A DNA stretch of 32,000 nucleotides from an archaeon. GTDB lineage: Archaea > Asgardarchaeota > Thorarchaeia > Thorarchaeales > Thorarchaeaceae. The notes under the pieces are model-generated. The model saw nothing but the letters and a program-made list of their open reading frames with translations, did no database searches and was not told where the DNA came from. Of this stretch, positions 3,236 through 9,342 are shown piece after piece (positions within the stretch are counted from its first letter, which is position 1; the number at the start of each line of letters is the position of its first letter). Both the position numbers and the translations under genes were made by a program. The stretch spans positions 16,586 through 48,585 of the forward strand of contig JAJRZD010000077.1 of the NCBI GenBank assembly GCA_024275415.1. Direction: 5' to 3'.

Positions 3236-3886
3236 CTAGATATTCTTGAATTCATCAATCCGTTCCATGTATTCGTCCCTACGGGTTCTTGGGAACATGA
3301 TGAATCTGCATTCTTTGTCGCCTGCTGCTTCACACATGATTTCCTCAGCTTCAAGATCGACACCTGCAACAACTGAGCACCAACCAGAGGAGTAACCTCC
3401 ATTGAAATAGCAGATATTATTCTGTGCACTTCTACCATCCTTCTTCCAGAGTTGCGCTTCAAAATTGTTTGGATGGTCGTACACTAGGAAGAACTCGTCA
3501 CCCTCTACAGGATTCGATCCAGGTAGTAGTCGTACTCTGACAAAACCTGAGTATGCCGCCCAAATCGGGCCAGCCGCGATTCTTTCCACAGGTGTTGATA
3601 GTCCAAGTTTTGGAAGCAGACGTTCTGCCTCAGACCTGCCAAACGATTGTCCTAGACGATAGATAAGAAGATCCCTTCCTGCTTCGCCGAGGACGGTGTC
3701 CAATTCGTCTTTTAGCGATAATGCCAATGTTCTAAGTCCTATGAACATCACATTGTCATCAAGAAGTTGGATTCGCCCTTCTTCAGGTATGAATTTTAAC
3801 TCATTCTTGAAAAACTCTTCATATTGGGTTTCGATTCGTTCAATCATCTCGCTCATTTCGGGGGGAGCTTCAACAGTCTTTACCAT
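3236..3886 (-). CDS. Stand-alone V4R (XylR-N/4-vinyl reductase) domain protein
   Basis: LKFIPEEGRIQLLDDNVMFI (XylR-N-like start), ICYFNGGYSSGWCS and EEIMCEAAGDKECRF (V4R Cys pattern). ATG 3886, or GTG 3895 as in the track. Confidence 0.85.
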   Translation of the reverse strand: MVKTVEAPPEMSEMIERIETQYEEFFKNELKFIPEEGRIQLLDDNVMFIGLRTLALSLKDELDTVLGEAGRDLLIYRLGQSFGRSEAERLLPKLGLSTPVERIAAGPIWAAYSGFVRVRLLPGSNPVEGDEFFLVYDHPNNFEAQLWKKDGRSAQNNICYFNGGYSSGWCSVVAGVDLEAEEIMCEAAGDKECRFIMFPRTRRDEYMERIDEFKNI

Positions 3887-3909
3887 TAATCGCACTTCCA
3901 GAATGATAT

Positions 3910-3939
3910 TTTTTAAATTATCAGAAATATTTAAATATT
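3910..3939 (-). promoter_or_regulatory. Candidate TATA boxes and 14-bp palindrome upstream of the V4R gene
   Basis: Perfect palindrome AATATTTAAATATT (3926-3939); TTTAAAAA on the minus strand (3917-3910), about 25-30 nt upstream of ATG 3886. Confidence 0.4.
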
Positions 3940-4176
3940 CTTGCTATTAACAGGATGTTGCCCATTATAATGGCTTTATTTGCTTTTTGTAACACTGGTT
4001 AATTCTTACACCGTGTTGCGGTCTTTTTTCTTGTATCTCCGCTGTTTATAGATTTCAACTGGATACCTGTTTATGTGTCGGTCATTGCACTCATAATTCA
4101 TATTTTTATGTTCTAAAATATAGAAAGATTCAAATTATTATGTGGGGCGATTATACCGTAGGATAGAGTGATTGAG

Positions 4177-4710
4177 ATGGCAGAACGAAACCCGGTATCA
4201 TTTTTCAAATTGGTTAGCCTGTGTAAGAAACACATTCAATGGGTTGGACTATCTGATGCATCTCTTGATATTCTGGCTTTGCTTCTTGCTGAGAAATATT
4301 GGTCAAAGGAGCCGATGTCCCCAGAGGAGATTGAAACAATCACTGGCTATTCAAGAGGGACTATCAGTGTCGCACTATCTCAATTGAAGGGTCTAGGATT
4401 CATCGATGGGATTCTTGATACGGCGCAGAAGGGACGAGGGCGGAAGAGAACGAAATATGCCATTAGCGGTGGTCTATCAGGGCTGATTGCGTTCGGTGTG
4501 AGAAAGCTGGATATCGAGTTGGGCTCGATGATCGAAGAACTTCAGGCCCTTATGGAAACAATCGGTGACGATGCTTCAGCAGAAAAGATGATCTCAGCAC
4601 TTGAAGAAGAAGCACGAACGAACATTTCCTTACTCAAAGATGCGTCTATGAAGATCCAAACGAATATAGCAAGGACGAACTCTATTACCAATGATAGTTC
4701 TGAGGATTAA
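4177..4710 (+). CDS. GbsR/MarR family winged-helix transcriptional regulator (copy 1)
   Basis: ILALLLAEK...PMSPEEIETITGYSRGTISVALSQLKGLGFI...GRGRKRTKY, followed by a helical coiled-coil-like C-terminus. ATG 4177 (GTG 4168 in track). Confidence 0.82.
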   Translation: MAERNPVSFFKLVSLCKKHIQWVGLSDASLDILALLLAEKYWSKEPMSPEEIETITGYSRGTISVALSQLKGLGFIDGILDTAQKGRGRKRTKYAISGGLSGLIAFGVRKLDIELGSMIEELQALMETIGDDASAEKMISALEEEARTNISLLKDASMKIQTNIARTNSITNDSSED

Positions 4711-4748
4711 TACGATTTTAAAACCACTTCTTTCAGTTCATTCTAAAA

Positions 4749-4776
4749 ATTTTGGATATTTCCAAAATATTTATAT
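4749..4776 (+). promoter_or_regulatory. Inverted repeat abutting a TATA-like box upstream of the Roadblock-GTPase operon
   Basis: ATTTTGGA-TATT-TCCAAAAT (4749-4768; 8-bp perfect arms, 4-nt spacer) followed by TTTATAT (4770-4776). Confidence 0.5.
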
Positions 4777-4912
4777 GAAAAAAAGATGATGTGAACTTTA
4801 GTCATGCATGGTGTTAATGAATTGGGATCTCTGAAGTTCCACGGGGACATTCACACTTCTTGATTGTTGATACCATTGCTAAACTATGAATGCTAAAGAA
4901 CTGGTGATTGAC

Positions 4913-5275
4913 ATGAGTGCCAAAATTAAGAAACTGGTTGATGTGTTGATGCAACTGGAACAAAACAGCGAAGTTGATGGCTGTGCCCTTGTAAGTGAAA
5001 GAGGACAGGTGATGGCTGCTGCACTCCACAAGGGGATTGATGAGAAGGCTGTATCTGCAATGGCTGCTGCTATTGTTTCAATCGGTGGTAGGGTTGGAGC
5101 TGCCCTTGACTCGGGCGAACCCCGAAACATTGTTTTGGAAGGAGAAAGAAAAACAATCATTGTCCGCAAGATCAGCAATGCTGCATTGATTGCTACTGCT
5201 CCCGCAGAAGCTAAGATTGGTCTCATTGACTTCGAGATGGACAAGACAGCCGGACAAATACAGGAAATCCTGTAG
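4913..5275 (+). CDS. Roadblock/LC7 (MglB/LAMTOR2-like) protein 1
   Basis: VDGCALVSERGQVMAAAL...AVSAMAAAIVSIGGRVGAAL..GEPRNIVLEGERKTIIV is canonical Roadblock. GGTGAT (4903-4908) suggests ATG 4913; track start 4886. Confidence 0.92.
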   Translation: MSAKIKKLVDVLMQLEQNSEVDGCALVSERGQVMAAALHKGIDEKAVSAMAAAIVSIGGRVGAALDSGEPRNIVLEGERKTIIVRKISNAALIATAPAEAKIGLIDFEMDKTAGQIQEIL

Positions 5276-5326
5276 CTTTTAAGATGGCCTTCATCTACTA
5301 ATTTTCCCTAAGAGGCAACTGACTTG

Positions 5327-5986
5327 ATGTCTTTGAAGAAACTGAAAACATACGATTACAAGATCTACGTCACAGGTCCTTTTCAAGCTGGGAAAACTAC
5401 CCTTATCCATACACTTGACCCTGATGCAATTTCTGTCGAGCGCGATATGAAAGAGGCATACCGTGGTGAAAAAAGCACGACCACAACGGGCTTCGACCTT
5501 GGGAGAGTCATCTGGGTGCGGAAAGAAGCAACCCATACCGGATTGATTGTACCGAAAAAAGAATACAATAGGGAAACGAGTGAATATGACGGATGGATTA
5601 CACGAGAGATAGAGCTTCGAGGAGTGCCAGGTCAGCTTCATTTCAAATTTGTCCGTGATACTATGAGGGTGAACACAGATGCCGTGCTGATGATAGTGGA
5701 TGCATCAGACCCCGGCATGATTGGAGACGCAAGTGCGATACTCGCTGAAACAACTGCGTCTTTTGGGGACATTCCTATGGTCGCTGTGGCAAACAAGCAG
5801 GATCGAGATGACGCTGCATCCCCCGAAGACATAGGACTCTGGCTTGGACTGCCACATGTCGTTGGTATGTGCGCAAGGAACCACGAATCTGCAAAGGATG
5901 CACTGTGCCTTCTCCTCAGAAAACTGGAGAAAAACATTCCACAGCAAAGGCAAGATACTGATACGATGATGACCCACAATTTTTGA
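5327..5986 (+). CDS. MglA/CvnD-like small GTPase
   Basis: KIYVTGPFQAGKTT (G1), TTTGFDLG (G2), GVPGQ (G3 variant typical of MglA/CvnD-type GTPases), ANKQD (G4), CAR (G5). Lies between Roadblock genes. Confidence 0.85.
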   Translation: MSLKKLKTYDYKIYVTGPFQAGKTTLIHTLDPDAISVERDMKEAYRGEKSTTTTGFDLGRVIWVRKEATHTGLIVPKKEYNRETSEYDGWITREIELRGVPGQLHFKFVRDTMRVNTDAVLMIVDASDPGMIGDASAILAETTASFGDIPMVAVANKQDRDDAASPEDIGLWLGLPHVVGMCARNHESAKDALCLLLRKLEKNIPQQRQDTDTMMTHNF

Positions 5987-5999
5987 GAACGGTGAGAAC

Positions 6000-6452
6000 A
6001 TGAGCAACCTTAACGATTTACCACCAATCATGGAGATCAGAAAACTGCTGTCCGATTTTGAAGTGAAAATACCCGTCTGGGGCTTGACCGTCTTCACAGT
6101 GGATGGCTACATTCTGGCACATCGATTATTCTCTGACGAAATGCCTGCAAATCTTGAAACCGCCATAAGCAGCATGTCCGCAGGACTGATTACGATCTCT
6201 GAGGACTTGATACGAATGGTTGATCCAAGTACGAGGTTCAGACAAGTACTTGTAGATGGTGAGGATGAACGAGGTGTTATCAGCTTCACAATACTGCTAA
6301 AGCAAGTGGCTGAAAATGTGATGCTTTCGTGCATCTTTCCCGTGCATGTGCAGCTTGGTCTGGTATCCTTTGAGATTGAGAATCTCTCGACTAGAATCTC
6401 AGACATTGTGGAACTCTGGGATGTCAAGCTACATGAGGAAACAGTAACATGA
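6000..6452 (+). CDS. Roadblock/LC7-fold protein 2 (divergent)
   Basis: WGLTVFTVDGYILAHRL...ETAISSMSAGLITISEDL...FRQVLVDGE...LSCIFPVHVQLGLVSFEIENL fits the Roadblock pattern; 13 nt downstream of the GTPase gene. Confidence 0.75.
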   Translation: MSNLNDLPPIMEIRKLLSDFEVKIPVWGLTVFTVDGYILAHRLFSDEMPANLETAISSMSAGLITISEDLIRMVDPSTRFRQVLVDGEDERGVISFTILLKQVAENVMLSCIFPVHVQLGLVSFEIENLSTRISDIVELWDVKLHEETVT

Positions 6453-6464
6453 TGGTGAATATCC

Positions 6465-6884
6465 ATGACACTTGGGAAACTAGACCAATTGAACGGGATT
6501 ATCCGGCAATTAATCAATACTTCAAAGGGTGCCATAACCAACTGCGTTGTAACTAACGAACGTGGTCTTGTGGTCGCAGGCGTATCCACCGACGGCTCAT
6601 CGCAGCAGGATTTAGCGGCGATGATATCCCTCCTTTCAGATACTGCTGTTCGCGTTAACGGGAATCTAGGCTTTGGAGCGCCAAAAGGAGTCCAGATTAC
6701 TGGATTAGGTGTATCTGTGTCTTTGCATGAATTCCTTGTACAGAACAGGCGATTTAAGATAGGGGCTATAGTGCAGGAAGGCTATCACTGGAGAACACTA
6801 TTCAGATCCAAGCCTGCCAGCCAGATTGTTGTCAATAAGCTGGAAAAAGCTGCAGGCATGATACGAAAAGTGCTGGAACAATGA
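6465..6884 (+). CDS. Roadblock/LC7 protein 3
   Basis: ITNCVVTNERGLVVAGV...DLAAMISLLSDTAVRVNGNLGFG..KGVQITG; 12 nt after the previous stop, with GGTGA upstream. Confidence 0.8.
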   Translation: MTLGKLDQLNGIIRQLINTSKGAITNCVVTNERGLVVAGVSTDGSSQQDLAAMISLLSDTAVRVNGNLGFGAPKGVQITGLGVSVSLHEFLVQNRRFKIGAIVQEGYHWRTLFRSKPASQIVVNKLEKAAGMIRKVLEQ

Positions 6885-7165
6885 GATGCTTCTGTAAATT
6901 GGGGCATATGCACATGTCACTATTTATTTCCATTCTGTCATCGCAACCGACACTCGGTGTCATTGACAGGGAGTGTTGCGTGGGATACACTCTTCGCATT
7001 GAAGAGTTGATTTCACACAAAGGTAGGAGAAACATTGCCCTCATAGGAATGAGAACACATTATATCTACATACATGTAGTTGAATCACACAACTACGGAA
7101 CAGATGCAAAAGTATCACCCAATAAGGACTTGGTTTTGTGGTTAGACTAAGGAGGATTGACCTGA

Positions 7166-7639
7166 ATGGATGACGCAACTCGGAGTAGTATGGAAAGTAT
7201 TACCAAACTATTACAGATCACAGCTGGAATGCTCGGACTGCAACGGTCAGCAGGTTCGGTTCTTGCGGCTTTGTACTTGAGCGATTTCGAGTCTGGTGGG
7301 CGTATGTCATCCAAGGAAGTTAGCGATGTCACTGGATTATCCAGAAGCATGATTTCTATGGTTCTCTCACAGCTTCAGTCATTGGATATAATCGATACGC
7401 ATCTGGATGTGACCAAGAAGCAGGGTGGGCGACGGACAATGCTGTACTCGTTGAGAATGGGTGTCCATGACCTTCTGAAGCTCGTCATCCAAAAGTATCT
7501 TGAACAGACACAAAGGATTTTGAATGACCTAGAACAGGTCAAGAGTGGACTTCCCGAAAGTGATATGGAGTCGCCCCTGATTCTAGACCGTGTGATGAGC
7601 GAACTTATTCTGTTTCTTGCTAATCCATGCGGCCTCTAG
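7166..7639 (+). CDS. GbsR/MarR family winged-helix transcriptional regulator (copy 2)
   Basis: GMLGLQRSAGSVLAALYLS...MSSKEVSDVTGLSRSMISMVLSQLQSLDII...GGRRTMLY; AGGAGG ribosome-binding site upstream. Confidence 0.85.
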   Translation: MDDATRSSMESITKLLQITAGMLGLQRSAGSVLAALYLSDFESGGRMSSKEVSDVTGLSRSMISMVLSQLQSLDIIDTHLDVTKKQGGRRTMLYSLRMGVHDLLKLVIQKYLEQTQRILNDLEQVKSGLPESDMESPLILDRVMSELILFLANPCGL

Positions 7640-7798
7640 GTCTCGGCTTCTTATGCTGGATGGAGATTTGAGCTCGCCTGAAAAAGGTCTATACGTTATA
7701 CTAAGAGCATTACCGGGTACGCTATCAAAATTCGAATCACTTGTTTGTCTAAAAATGATTTAAGGGCAAGTGAAACGTATTTGCTCTCAGGTCTTTGT

Positions 7799-8602
7799 AT
7801 GAAACTCGTTGGTCTGACACGTCCCTACATCATGGCACATCGAGGAGACTCCGCTTCAGCTCCCGAGAACACACTACTGTCCATGAAACGAGCAATCGAG
7901 ATTGGCGTTGATTTTATCGAAACAGATGTCAGGCTATCACGCGATGATGAACCGATACTTTTTCATGATGACACTCTAGAGCGAACTACAGGTGAGAAAG
8001 GCGCAATCCGTGACAAATCGCTGGAAGAATTGAAACAGATAGACTTGGGGTACGGGTTCACACCTGACGGAGGCGTGACATATCCCTATCGGGGTAAGGG
8101 TATGACAGTAGTGACTCTGCGTGAGGCATTCGAAGCATTTCCTGATGTCAACTTCAATTTGGACATGAAAGACCGAGAAACCCATGTGCCAGATGTGTTA
8201 GCATCCGTCATCGAAGAATATGACCGAGCGGATCGTGTGATAGTCGGTTCCTTTCATGACCACCAGACCTATCGTTTTCGAAAAATCATGCCCGCCGTGA
8301 TGACCAGCGCATATCCCGCGGAAGTGACACGATTCGTCTTTGCACTAAAGATGAGAGTCATCCGTTTCTATGCGCGAAATTGCAAGTTCGAGGCATTTCA
8401 GGTTCCTATTAAATACGGTATGATTAGAGTCGTTGACAGCAGATTCGTGAAAGCAGCCCACGAGCGAGGCATTGCCGTACATGTCTGGACCGTGAATGAA
8501 CCTGATGTGATGCATCAATTGATAGACCTAGGTGTGGACGGCATCTTCACTGACCGCCCTGCGCTCCTCAGGGATGTACTGACTAACCGAGGAATGCTTT
8601 AA
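7799..8602 (+). CDS. Glycerophosphodiester phosphodiesterase (GDPD family)
   Basis: IMAHRGDSASAPENT, FIETDVRLSRD..PILFHDDTLERTT, FNLDMK, VHVWTVN, GVDGIFTDRP. Likely ATG 7799 (track TTG 7745). Confidence 0.95.
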   Translation: MKLVGLTRPYIMAHRGDSASAPENTLLSMKRAIEIGVDFIETDVRLSRDDEPILFHDDTLERTTGEKGAIRDKSLEELKQIDLGYGFTPDGGVTYPYRGKGMTVVTLREAFEAFPDVNFNLDMKDRETHVPDVLASVIEEYDRADRVIVGSFHDHQTYRFRKIMPAVMTSAYPAEVTRFVFALKMRVIRFYARNCKFEAFQVPIKYGMIRVVDSRFVKAAHERGIAVHVWTVNEPDVMHQLIDLGVDGIFTDRPALLRDVLTNRGML

Positions 8603-8739: not shown

Positions 8740-9342
8740 ATGGCTGAAATACCTGAGAATCAAGAGATGAGAAATTACAAAGTAGTACAGAAACTGCTGG
8801 CTATGAGGCCGGTCTACGAGATATACGACGAACAATCCGGTGAGATGGTGGCTATTGCCAAGCAGACGTGGATGAGCTTTCTGAGATCGACAATGCATAT
8901 CGAAGACCCTCAAGGGAATCGCTTGTTCACTGCAAAAGGAGGCTTTTTCGATAAGACATTCTGGCTTTTGGATGCGTCTGGAAATAAAGTTGCAAGACTG
9001 ACGCGGCCATGGATCGCTCTCAGACAGAATTTCACTATTTACTATCGTGAGGATATTGTGAAGGCACAGGGAGGCTTTTTCGCATGGGGCTTCGAGGCAC
9101 GCAATAGTCAGGGAATCTTTGCATTCAGATTGGACAAGAAGATTCTGGCTATCCGAGATCAGTTCCGAGTGCAGGTCGGAGAGTATATGAATCCTCTCCA
9201 TGCCGTTGCATCTGCGCTGGTTGTGGATCGGATATTCTTCAAAGGCAAAGGATGCGGATGCCGAACGCTCCTCTGTATCCTATTACTGATTGGATTTGGG
9301 ATATTAACGATAATATCCATGATATCGTCATTGCTGCCCTAA
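8740..9342 (+). CDS. LURP-one/scramblase (tubby C-terminal-like) family protein with C-terminal transmembrane anchor
   Basis: Repeating beta-hairpin pattern YKVVQKLLAMRPVYEIYD...MHIEDPQGNRLF...FWLLDASGNKVARLTRPWIALRQNFTI, a central helix ending ALVVDRIFF, then GCGC and a hydrophobic tail. Confidence 0.75.
   Translation: MAEIPENQEMRNYKVVQKLLAMRPVYEIYDEQSGEMVAIAKQTWMSFLRSTMHIEDPQGNRLFTAKGGFFDKTFWLLDASGNKVARLTRPWIALRQNFTIYYREDIVKAQGGFFAWGFEARNSQGIFAFRLDKKILAIRDQFRVQVGEYMNPLHAVASALVVDRIFFKGKGCGCRTLLCILLLIGFGILTIISMISSLLP

Follow-up and report, generated by a model that had tools for sequence, protein, structure and literature searches.

A Roadblock-GTPase gene cluster of Thorarchaeota with paired winged-helix regulators and a candidate operator

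Six co-oriented genes on the + strand, at positions 4177-7639 of the 32,000-nucleotide (nt) stretch of thorarchaeal DNA analyzed here (the window; contig C57:16586-48585 of a Thorarchaeota assembly of 3.5 Mb in 127 contigs), raise the question of whether two proteins that resemble transcription regulators belong to the GTPase module that they bracket and, if so, what they do there. In order, the genes encode a winged helix-turn-helix (wHTH) protein, wHTH-A, a Roadblock protein, RobA, a small GTPase, two further Roadblock proteins, RobB and RobC, and a second winged-helix protein, wHTH-B. A first-pass annotation, made from the letters alone, had described them as a self-contained GTPase circuit tied to transcription; the list of open reading frames (ORFs) confirms the order and orientation that it gave, and Pfam, profile, and fold comparisons bear out the folds that it assigned to all six products. 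The reading that we consider on balance probable is that the window carries a reduced version of a signalling cluster of several genes kept by one Thorarchaeota family and that wHTH-A controls the core of this cluster through a candidate operator.

Conservation of the core and of its regulators

A search with the GTPase in 400 genomes of the phylum (E ≤ 1e-20) gave matches in at least 65 genomes, and 82 loci were surveyed, namely the window, a paralogous locus of the same genome (C66), and 80 of the 84 places outside this genome; the four that were left out lie within ~1 kb of a contig end (G314:C450, G129:C114, G129:C63, and G153:C190). Profiles of the window proteins served to label all ORFs at these loci, 38 of which are from the Thorarchaeota family of the window and 44 from other Asgard families. 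The full RobA-GTPase-RobB-RobC order is present in 27 of the 38 family loci, with RobC downstream in 32 of them and a divergent GTPase paralogue without a Roadblock in the remaining six, and it recurs in 9 of the 44 other loci, including families that contain records named Hermodarchaeota, Heimdallarchaeota, and Candidatus Harpocratesius. Because of this recurrence within the family and beyond it, the gene order is not a product of chance. The intergenic gaps along the six window genes are 175, 48 (51 from the ATG of the GTPase), 13, 12, and 281 nt, so that the range of 12-51 nt given earlier for the core was right, and in many of the surveyed loci a fourth Roadblock follows RobC.

The regulators have a narrower distribution. 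Among family loci with enough flanking sequence, wHTH-A is upstream in 13 of 28 and wHTH-B downstream in 11 of 27; in the 25 that can be assessed on both sides, both are present in nine, only wHTH-A in two, only wHTH-B in one, and neither in 13. Neither is present in any of the 44 other Asgard loci. The association between the winged-helix genes and the module is thus real and far beyond chance but clade-restricted: the linkage in related genomes, proposed as a check of the first-pass annotation, is found within one Thorarchaeota family and in none of the loci elsewhere.

The paralogous locus C66:4231-10738, whose GTPase is 65% identical to that of the window, has the order divergent REC-PAS-kinase, wHTH-A type, 155-residue V4R-fold protein, RobA, GTPase, RobB, RobC, and a 232-residue zinc-ribbon protein, which stands where wHTH-B would be. 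In a Promethearchaeota-type family the set is split over two divergent operons, the first with RobC (fused into a protein of ~500 residues), RobB', RobA, and the 155-residue protein, and the second with GTPase-RobB, after which come genes for a GNAT protein, in some cases HEAT-GNAT, and for a PAS kinase. At one such locus (L063:8109-9011) a TFIIB homologue (repeat 1.9e-32) directly follows GTPase-RobB, where the other Promethearchaeota-type loci have GNAT, and a protein of ~285 residues with HisKA and receiver domains and no ATPase domain (L051:2547-3404 and equivalents, x279-x292) flanks the RobC-RobB-RobA-V4R-fold operon beside a larger kinase. Beyond the Asgard archaea, GTPases of ~30% identity occur in Aigarchaeota/Nitrososphaerota, as x210-RobA-GTPase, and in Anaerolineae, there with a DUF4388/PATAN protein ahead of the GTPase. 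Among 53 such distant loci, a V4R-labelled gene is beside the GTPase in five, three of which also have a Roadblock-labelled gene there; Pfam confirms one of these V4R domains (L160, 6.8e-11).

The regulators and the candidate operator

wHTH-A (4168-4710, + strand) is 180 residues long if read from the GTG at 4168, but the likely start is the ATG at 4177, which agrees with the alignment of orthologues; wHTH-B (7166-7639, + strand) has 157 residues. The two are paralogues, as had been proposed, with 35% identity over 89 residues (BLASTP, E 2e-14), and the string of shared residues first reported is essentially right apart from a small slip in its GR.R part. Taken singly, they give Pfam matches to MarR_2/HTH that are below threshold (MarR_2 at 21.6 and 18.3 bits, with a cut-off of 27), and the NCBIfam models MreA (40.5, cut-off 100) and CudC (16.7, cut-off 218) are likewise not reached; a single-sequence search of the PDB with wHTH-B found nothing relevant. 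MarR_2 is matched at E ≤ 1 by all 23 members of the family (best 2e-8), and the profile of these 23 members matches the MarR-like protein MJ223 of Methanocaldococcus (1ku9_A, 3.6e-8, positions 16-149) in the PDB. The same structure is the top Foldseek match (4.7e-8) of the AlphaFold2 model of wHTH-A (predicted local distance difference test score, pLDDT, 89.4), in which four helices and a two-stranded β-wing are followed by two long C-terminal helices. GbsR models rest on MJ223. The label GbsR/MarR-type is a fair one. The wing contains a conserved basic GRGRR motif.

These matches also bear on the alternative that the winged-helix proteins are not transcription factors but subunits of a G-protein complex, comparable with CvnC/MfpC (DUF742) and acting as an exchange factor for the GTPase. 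The set of kinase, Roadblock, winged-helix-like protein, and MglA-family GTPase in relatives does parallel the four conservon proteins, and MfpC is described as a GEF (guanine nucleotide exchange factor; PMC11343762). However, DUF742 is not matched by wHTH-A of the window, nor is it among the best 25 of the 59 families matched by the 23 members; the best matches by sequence and by fold are DNA-binding proteins of MarR type; the wing is conserved and basic; a conserved palindrome lies beside the wHTH-A gene; and the GTPase does not have the G4 and G5 motifs of the group 2 (conservon) enzymes. We consider an exchange-factor role for these proteins quite improbable.

The palindrome offers the best indication of the role of the regulators. 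The stretch that precedes the core's first gene (RobA or, where it is present, the gene for the 155-residue protein) contains a motif, TTTTRGATAYWWCMRAA, in which an 18-bp palindrome, TTTTRGATA/TATCYAAAA, comes first and a box of ATATATA type second, 3-5 nt further on; every orthologous locus has such a box past its palindrome, and the motif lies 77-140 nt before the start codon. In the window the operator-like element is at 4744-4773, an inverted repeat with 13-nt arms that are 92% complementary and a core, TTTTGGATATTTCCAAA, at 4750-4766; a TATA-box-like TTTATAT at 4770-4776 (+ strand), 3 nt past the core of the palindrome and ~110 nt before the ATG of RobA, would serve as the promoter. The motif was derived from nine loci and tested in the equivalent 260 nt upstream. 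It is present without mismatch in 11 of the 13 assessable wHTH-A loci. At loci outside the derivation it has the same layout, with no mismatches in L016, L030, and L018, two in L013, and three in L010 and L027. One locus, L024 (G375:C19), was not scored, as a run of N at ~8.2-8.6 kb covers the 3' part of wHTH-A and the core promoter. In the 19 family loci that have neither regulator, the best match has 3-7 mismatches and is at background, for which the measure is that 1 in 3000 random 260-nt genome windows contains a match with two or fewer mismatches. The 3.5-Mb genome of the window has exactly two perfect sites, one in the window and one at the C66 locus, whose proteins are ~50-70% identical to those of the window, and a search of the family's 86 genomes gives 21 exact sites, of which 12 belong to these operons, as compared with four matches for a reversed-pattern control.

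The position and distribution of this element suggest that the regulators, and most simply wHTH-A, most likely control the core operon through it, because the palindrome that abuts the TATA box is present where the adjacent gene of MarR type is present. The first-pass annotation had left the winged-helix pair as either output or control of the module; of these, control is the one that the conserved palindrome at the core promoter favours, and the case for the regulators as controllers of the operon is stronger than that for an output role. The promoter of wHTH-A itself has a different element, of an ordinary type that combines a B recognition element (BRE) with a TATA-like box, AAGATT(T/C)AAAT; AAGATTTAAAT or a close version of it lies ~40-60 nt upstream of wHTH-A in orthologous loci, and its counterpart in the window, AAGATTCAAAT at 4125-4135 (+ strand), is read as the promoter by analogy with these.

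Some further sites deserve mention beside the operator. Two copies of ATTCAWATTWTTATGT, at 4096-4111 and 4128-4143, are 32 nt apart upstream of wHTH-A and overlap its TATA-like element; at up to three mismatches the window contains four matches, as against 1.2 expected, the two copies being exact, and the repeat is a possible candidate for an autoregulatory site of wHTH-A. Elsewhere in the same genome, ~40 nt before a gene for a 438-residue protein with an N terminus like that of family-1 glycosidases, there is a near-perfect palindromic copy of the operator (C117:35238-35254, with one mismatch whichever strand is read), which could mark a further target or be a chance occurrence. Rfam gave no match in 3800-7800, and a scan for sigma-70 promoters and terminators, which is unsuited to archaea, gave results at chance level.

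Kinases and a V4R/TRAPPC3-fold protein at related loci

The relatives have more genes than the window. Of the 11 loci with wHTH-B, seven have a gene for a PAS-HisKA-HATPase_c kinase that separates it from RobC, and a REC-PAS(-HATPase) gene adjoins wHTH-A, usually in divergent orientation, in 7 of the 8 loci that can be assessed (C66, L008, L010, L019, L024, L025, and L029), although in three of these seven the gene is cut by the end of the contig or locus and REC and PAS alone are visible. The window departs from this pattern at either end, with no kinase by wHTH-A or before wHTH-B, so that the earlier description of a self-contained circuit without a kinase is true of this copy but does not extend to its relatives. 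A tblastn search of 4000-8000 for remnants of the kinase, of PAS domains, of the 400-residue gene found downstream in relatives, and of the 155-residue V4R-fold gene returned noise only (E ≥ 0.27), and there is no kinase remnant in the 281-nt spacer between RobC and wHTH-B or in the 272-nt spacer between the V4R gene and wHTH-A. In a quick tree of the GTPases, the window gene is beside that of L010, a locus of the same genus with a kinase after RobC, and both are inside a clade that holds all seven kinase-bearing bracketed loci (Shimodaira-Hasegawa-like approximate likelihood ratio test, SH-aLRT, values of 84 and 83). Because relatives carry the kinases and this tree nests the window among kinase-bearing loci, the absence of a kinase from the window is best read, with moderate confidence, as a secondary loss.

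The spacer between RobC and wHTH-B (6885-7165, + strand) occupies the place of the kinase or fourth Roadblock of relatives and is unique to the window locus, the other loci having one of these genes or a gap of 27 nt. It contains GC-rich nested inverted repeats at 6935-7020 (RNA fold z −2.3) and a GGAGG 9 nt before the ATG of wHTH-B. A search of 6850-7200 for a remnant of a fourth Roadblock gave noise only, and an 89-residue ORF at 6881-7150 matches none of the profiles used. In relatives wHTH-B comes last in the operon: the interval that separates it from the gene before it is −34 to +27 nt in 10 loci, so that the two overlap or abut. A conserved protein of ~400-450 residues follows wHTH-B in L016, L017, L022-L025, and L029 (with HEAT_2 in L022 and no Pfam match in L017 and L029), and a homologue of 37% identity is encoded in the window's own genome, beside kinase genes and outside the window (C58:16162-17439). 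A further sensor-like component, a protein of ~430 residues that has a weak N-terminal HTH_IclR match and two or three PAS domains and lacks a kinase domain, is encoded after wHTH-A in several relatives; its gene lies between wHTH-A and the gene for the 155-residue protein in L016, L017, L019, L023, and L030, is present also in L033, and is absent from the window.

The slot before RobA points to a component that the first-pass annotation left out, a V4R/TRAPPC3-fold protein whose gene is tied to the core in relatives. In the window, a gene on the − strand at 3236-3895, divergent from wHTH-A, encodes a 219-residue protein with matches to Pfam XylR_N (2e-7, above the cut-off) and V4R (3.5e-6, below it) and to the V4R region of NCBIfam MobR (1.4e-11). 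Its orthologues are co-oriented with RobA and directly upstream of it in six loci (L007, L012, L014, L021, L026, and L028), and the slot in relatives is held either by this type or by the 155-residue protein, which has no Pfam match; one or the other V4R-fold gene is within two genes upstream in 22 of the 38 family loci. By sequence alone, the 155-residue family has no relevant Pfam match, no profile match in the PDB, and an hhalign probability of 0.6% against the V4R family. The AlphaFold2 model of the member at the paralogous locus (pLDDT 93.3) has as its best Foldseek matches the V4R domains of PoxR, MopR, and DmpR and the TRAPPC3/Bet3 subunits (E 1e-4 to 5e-3; template-modelling score, TMq, 0.55-0.62), for example PoxR 5frz_A at 1.2e-4 and TRAPPC3 6aq3_E at 2e-4; for the TRAPPC3 structures 6aq3, 7b6d, and 3cue TMq is 0.57-0.62, and the bacterial phenol sensors PoxR and MopR match the fold as well as TRAPPC3 does. 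Because the model matches these folds, the slot appears normally to be held by a protein of predicted V4R/TRAPPC3 fold. In the window it is empty, with the V4R gene beyond wHTH-A, as also at locus L029 of a sister genus. Other proteins fill the slot in some loci (x188 and x212 in Thor loci and proteins of ~200 residues in Hermod, ~210 in Aigarchaeota, and ~170 in Freya/Jord loci); for these, hhalign comparisons with the V4R-fold and Roadblock families were not significant, Pfam gave nothing, and the protein atlas gave nothing above 0.88.

It should be recognized that several of these observations weigh against the reading favoured here. The core does without either regulator in the 13 of 25 fully assessable family loci already counted. 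The nine loci that yielded the motif are counted again in the operator tally, and 9 of the 21 exact sites in the family are away from both GTPase loci and winged-helix genes. The loci without the regulators are mostly from other genera and from a separate GTPase clade, so that the correlation with the operator is partly confounded by relatedness and their different promoters could reflect divergence alone. Binding of the palindrome by a winged-helix protein is a prediction; the support for kinase loss in the quick tree is weak; and the V4R gene of the window, being divergent and separated from RobA by wHTH-A, can be assigned to the module only through synteny elsewhere. Moreover, the winged-helix family is not specific to the GTPase module and as a whole goes with sensor kinases. 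It has a match in 58 of the 86 genomes of the family of the window, with three or four copies in genomes with bracketed loci and mostly one copy in the others. The single copies belong to a third clade, named here after the fourth member in the genome of the window (C97; the window has two of the others and the C66 locus the third), and this fourth member is directly downstream of a gene for a 1227-residue kinase. Among 20 sampled loci of this clade, one per genome, the winged-helix gene immediately adjoins a kinase-labelled ORF in 10, where no ORF has a GTPase or Roadblock label, and G388, a genome that is 96% complete, has a gene of wHTH-A type and no match to the GTPase.

The third clade, G388, and the proximity of wHTH-A to REC-PAS genes and of wHTH-B to PAS kinases in the proportions given above would all be expected if the winged-helix proteins were partners or regulators of the histidine kinases rather than of the GTPase module, with the pair in the window a leftover after kinase loss. 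This we regard as possible but unlikely. The palindrome is at the promoter of the Roadblock/GTPase operon and not at the kinase genes; and palindrome and both winged-helix genes are intact in the window, which has no kinase, as well as in L022 and L025, which have none inside the operon. It should be noted that an association with kinases and control of the core operon by wHTH-A can both hold.

The remaining neighbours in the window offer little that recurs. Two genes upstream of wHTH-A, at 2287-2880, there is a Ras/Rab-family GTPase (Pfam Ras 5e-41), and a Ras-like gene is one or two genes upstream of the core in three of four Hermodarchaeota-type loci; because the genome of the window has 44 Ras-like ORFs, this adjacency may be chance. 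Downstream are a glycerophosphodiester phosphodiesterase (GDPD; 7745-8602, 2e-49) and, at 8740-9342, a LURP-one-related (LOR) protein that has a hydrophobic tail, neither of which recurs at related loci. A preprint mentions an earlier-described combination of an MglA, an MglB-like protein, and a wHTH-ABC ATPase as a possible system against selfish elements, and the cluster might by analogy be an anti-phage or anti-mobile-element system of GTPase-Roadblock-wHTH type. This is a very improbable reading of the locus, since PADLOC finds no more than a generic winged-helix similarity to Csa3 (~1e-4) in the two regulators and no match in the six other proteins tested, effector-like genes (nucleases, TIR proteins, and the like) were not seen in the cluster or its relatives, the neighbours are sensor kinases and housekeeping genes, and the core is conserved vertically across Asgard families.

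The GTPase switch, known systems, and the proposed working

The GTPase (5324-5986, with an ATG at 5327; + strand; 220 residues) has a Pfam match to Arf (1.1e-8) and an insert between its G2 and G3 motifs. In an alignment of 40 relatives (A1), G1 reads GPFQAGKT and conforms to the P-loop GxxxxGK[ST], with Gly18, Gly23, and Lys24 invariant; G2 is TTTTGFD, with Thr53 and Thr54 invariant and a Thr where the group 1 enzymes have their intrinsic arginine finger; G3 is GVPGQ (within R-G-V-P-G-Q), lacking an Asp, with Gly100 and Gly103 invariant and Pro102 conserved in at least 90%; and G4 is NKQD (ANKQD), together with a motif of SAK type, with Lys158 and Asp160 invariant and Asn157 conserved in at least 90%. 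As they were defined, MglA groups 2-5 have a Thr in G2 where group 1 has its arginine finger, and their G3 is of GTPGQ type (Wuichet and Sogaard-Andersen 2014, PMC4316618); the third position of G3 here is V, C, A, or S as opposed to the published T, and a Roadblock gene with the Asp-Gly pair of coupled MglB proteins, RobB, is 13 nt downstream. The motifs thus place the GTPase within groups 2-5 of the MglA family by published definition. In the same classification G4 is [NT]KxD in groups 1, 4, and 5, whereas groups 2 and 3 have a deviant NxFD together with a G5 of DAR (PMC4316618). Because its G4 is the canonical NKQD, the GTPase would be of the group 4 or 5 kind rather than of the conservon type, group 2. 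In the PDB its family profile matches an Asgard Arf-like protein (8oun, 9.5e-16), Arl1, and Thermus MglA (3t12, 1.9e-12), in the C-terminal half only.

The three Roadblock proteins differ in how readily they are recognized. RobA (4886-5275, + strand, 129 residues) matches Pfam Robl_LC7 (PF03259) at 1.3e-10, with 41.3 bits against a cut-off of 23; RobB (6000-6452, + strand, 150 residues) matches it below the cut-off, at 1.3e-3 and 18.9 bits; and RobC (6465-6884, + strand, 139 residues) has no Pfam match. By hhalign, RobB and RobC match the RobA family with probabilities of 98.9% (E 2.1e-17) and 98.4% (E 5.2e-15), respectively. In the PDB the profile of the RobA family matches 9jue_D (1.5e-26), 7f8m_A (1.2e-24), cvnB5 (3leq, 3.6e-11), MglB (~3e-7), and LAMTOR2 (~1e-5), and that of the RobC family the Roadblock chains 9jue_D and 7f8f_A (1.1e-6) and Streptomyces CvnB5 (2.3e-4). 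These comparisons indicate that all three have the Roadblock fold. They form separately conserved orthologous groups (alignments A3, A7, and A2) with different residues at the β1-β2 turn, which is Asp-Gly in all 36 sequences of RobB (Asp35 and Gly36), Arg-Gly or Lys-Gly in 28 of 33 of RobA, and Arg-Gly in 25 of 31 of RobC. That the three are distinct, as the first-pass annotation held, is thus upheld, and the turn differences would fit non-equivalent roles without telling which pairs form. MglB proteins coupled to MglA of groups 2-5 have a conserved Asp-Gly pair that is predicted to be within reach of the GTPase (PMC4316618), and among the three paralogues it is RobB that carries this pair. 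RobB directly follows the GTPase in 30 of the 38 family loci and in 21 of the 24 Promethearchaeota-type loci, where the two form an operon by themselves.

The cluster shares features with several characterized systems. As in MglA-MglB(-MglC) of Myxococcus xanthus and Thermus thermophilus, a GTPase without the Asp of G3 (xxPGQ) is encoded beside Roadblocks, and the PDB profile matches include MglA (3t12) and MglB at the values given; an AlphaFold3-predicted MglA/MglB-like pair from Thorarchaeota is mentioned in PMC13408092. Unlike those systems, with their one or two Roadblocks, the cluster has three distinct Roadblocks (four in some relatives) for each GTPase, as well as a V4R-fold protein, PAS kinases in relatives, and two regulators of MarR type; in contrast to MglA of group 1, the GTPase has Thr-Thr in G2 in place of the intrinsic arginine finger and has the G2-G3 insert, and in contrast to Myxococcus MglA, partners of the RomR/RomX type are not found nearby. 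The conservons (CvnA-D and MfpA-E) resemble the clusters of relatives in joining a histidine kinase, one or more Roadblocks, a winged-helix-like protein, and a GTPase of the MglA family and in lacking a DNA-binding response regulator, but the window copy has no kinase, the regulators are of MarR/GbsR type and not DUF742, the GTPase has NKQD and not the NxFD/DAR of group 2, and the kinases of relatives are cytoplasmic PAS types as opposed to HAMP membrane kinases. PMC4316618 covers the conservon as well as the pairing of MglA with MglB and its spread among archaea, and conservons are treated further in PMC13343842, PMC13621833, and PMC11343762. The PATAN(DUF4388)-GTPase-Roadblock-V4R operons of Anaerolineae likewise combine a GTPase of ~30% identity with a Roadblock and V4R, sometimes near a kinase, and MglA group 5 has PATAN neighbours (PMC4316618); unlike the Asgard loci, however, they are headed by a PATAN/DUF4388 protein (2.8e-21, 9.8e-28) and have one Roadblock and no pair of MarR type.

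Among eukaryotic complexes, the TRAPP core and Ragulator-Rag also bring several small subunits of Roadblock or longin fold to bear on a small GTPase, a composition that is known here from the genes, and TRAPP has a Bet3/TRAPPC3-fold subunit, for which the modeled protein upstream of RobA in relatives may be a counterpart. The GTPase, however, is of MglA type rather than Rab or Rag, its partners match Roadblock and not longin profiles, and the Asgard module, unlike TRAPP, would be under kinase and winged-helix control. A conserved operon of a Roadblock-superfamily protein and a small GTPase has been described in Asgard archaea, consisting of LAMTOR1-like, Rab-like, and DENN genes (Liu et al., 10.1101/2020.10.19.343400), but its GTPase is Rab-like, no DENN gene was seen here, and no V4R-fold, kinase, or wHTH gene is named for it in the available part of that preprint, where the conserved Asgard operons named are the ESCRT and the LAMTOR1-like/Rab-like/DENN neighbourhoods only. 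Structures of Asgard Rab-like, Roadblock, and TRAPPC3 proteins were reported by Tran et al. 2024 (PMC10933270), and V4R was proposed as the ancestor of Bet3 by Podar et al. 2008 (PMC2253512), the main text of which does not mention operon, GTP, MglB, or roadblock. The MglA/MglB-type switch and, in relatives, the conservon-like coupling to kinases are, as judged from their sequences, the known part of the cluster. In full-text searches of the literature no description was found of an operon of V4R-fold protein, three Roadblocks, and MglA-type GTPase with kinases, MarR-type regulators, and an operator, although the neighbourhood may be listed in the supplementary tables that accompany Liu et al. 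and Wuichet and Sogaard-Andersen; the slot for the V4R/TRAPPC3-fold subunit and the operator linked to the winged-helix gene were not found in print and are new by this literature search.

From these comparisons we infer a scheme for the binding events, the direction of regulation, the roles as GTPase-activating protein (GAP) or GEF, and the cellular output. The core would be an MglA-type GTPase with three non-equivalent Roadblocks, headed in most relatives by a V4R/TRAPPC3-fold protein, accompanied there by PAS histidine kinases, and flanked by the two MarR/GbsR-type paralogues. A Roadblock dimer containing RobB would act on the GTPase as MglB acts on MglA, and RobA, RobC, and the V4R-fold protein may extend or scaffold this RobB-GTPase platform. 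A dimer of wHTH-A would bind the 18-bp palindrome abutting the TATA box and so set the transcription of RobA-GTPase-RobB-RobC; in relatives the adjacent kinases may influence this action on the operon, and wHTH-B, co-transcribed there at the 3' end, could be a second regulator in feedback or output. As the window lacks the two kinases and a V4R-fold gene inside the operon, the divergent V4R gene would be its only candidate sensor. More speculatively, the V4R/TRAPPC3-fold protein, RobA, the GTPase, RobB, and RobC could constitute one physical platform throughout the Asgard archaea, in which a ligand sensor of Bet3 fold is mounted on Roadblock dimers, a counterpart of TRAPP and Ragulator as analogue or distant relative, and which in Thorarchaeota is wired through the operator to a circuit of kinase and MarR-type regulator; we put this forward tentatively and regard it as doubtful.

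Asgard archaea have dozens of small GTPases and of Roadblock and longin proteins, and the matching of a GTPase to its GAP or GEF is hard because in strain MK-D1 the GTPase genes are generally not in operons with genes for Roadblock, longin, or TRAPPC3 proteins (PMC10933270). The cluster provides a conserved, co-encoded, and assayable set of one GTPase, three Roadblocks, a V4R/TRAPPC3-fold protein, sensor kinases, two regulators, and a candidate operator. It joins three strands that have been treated separately until now, the MglA/MglB switches, the conservon-like G-protein systems coupled to kinases, and the V4R/Bet3 fold as proposed ancestor of TRAPP subunits (PMC2253512). If the Asgard-wide platform is real, Asgard archaea would have in it their first GTPase matched with a GAP/GEF platform, a sensor, and a regulator, and if the parts form one complex, the cluster would bear on the origin of the multi-subunit GTPase regulators of eukaryotes. 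If they form no complex, the locus would still offer a clean archaeal regulator of MarR type with a predicted operator.

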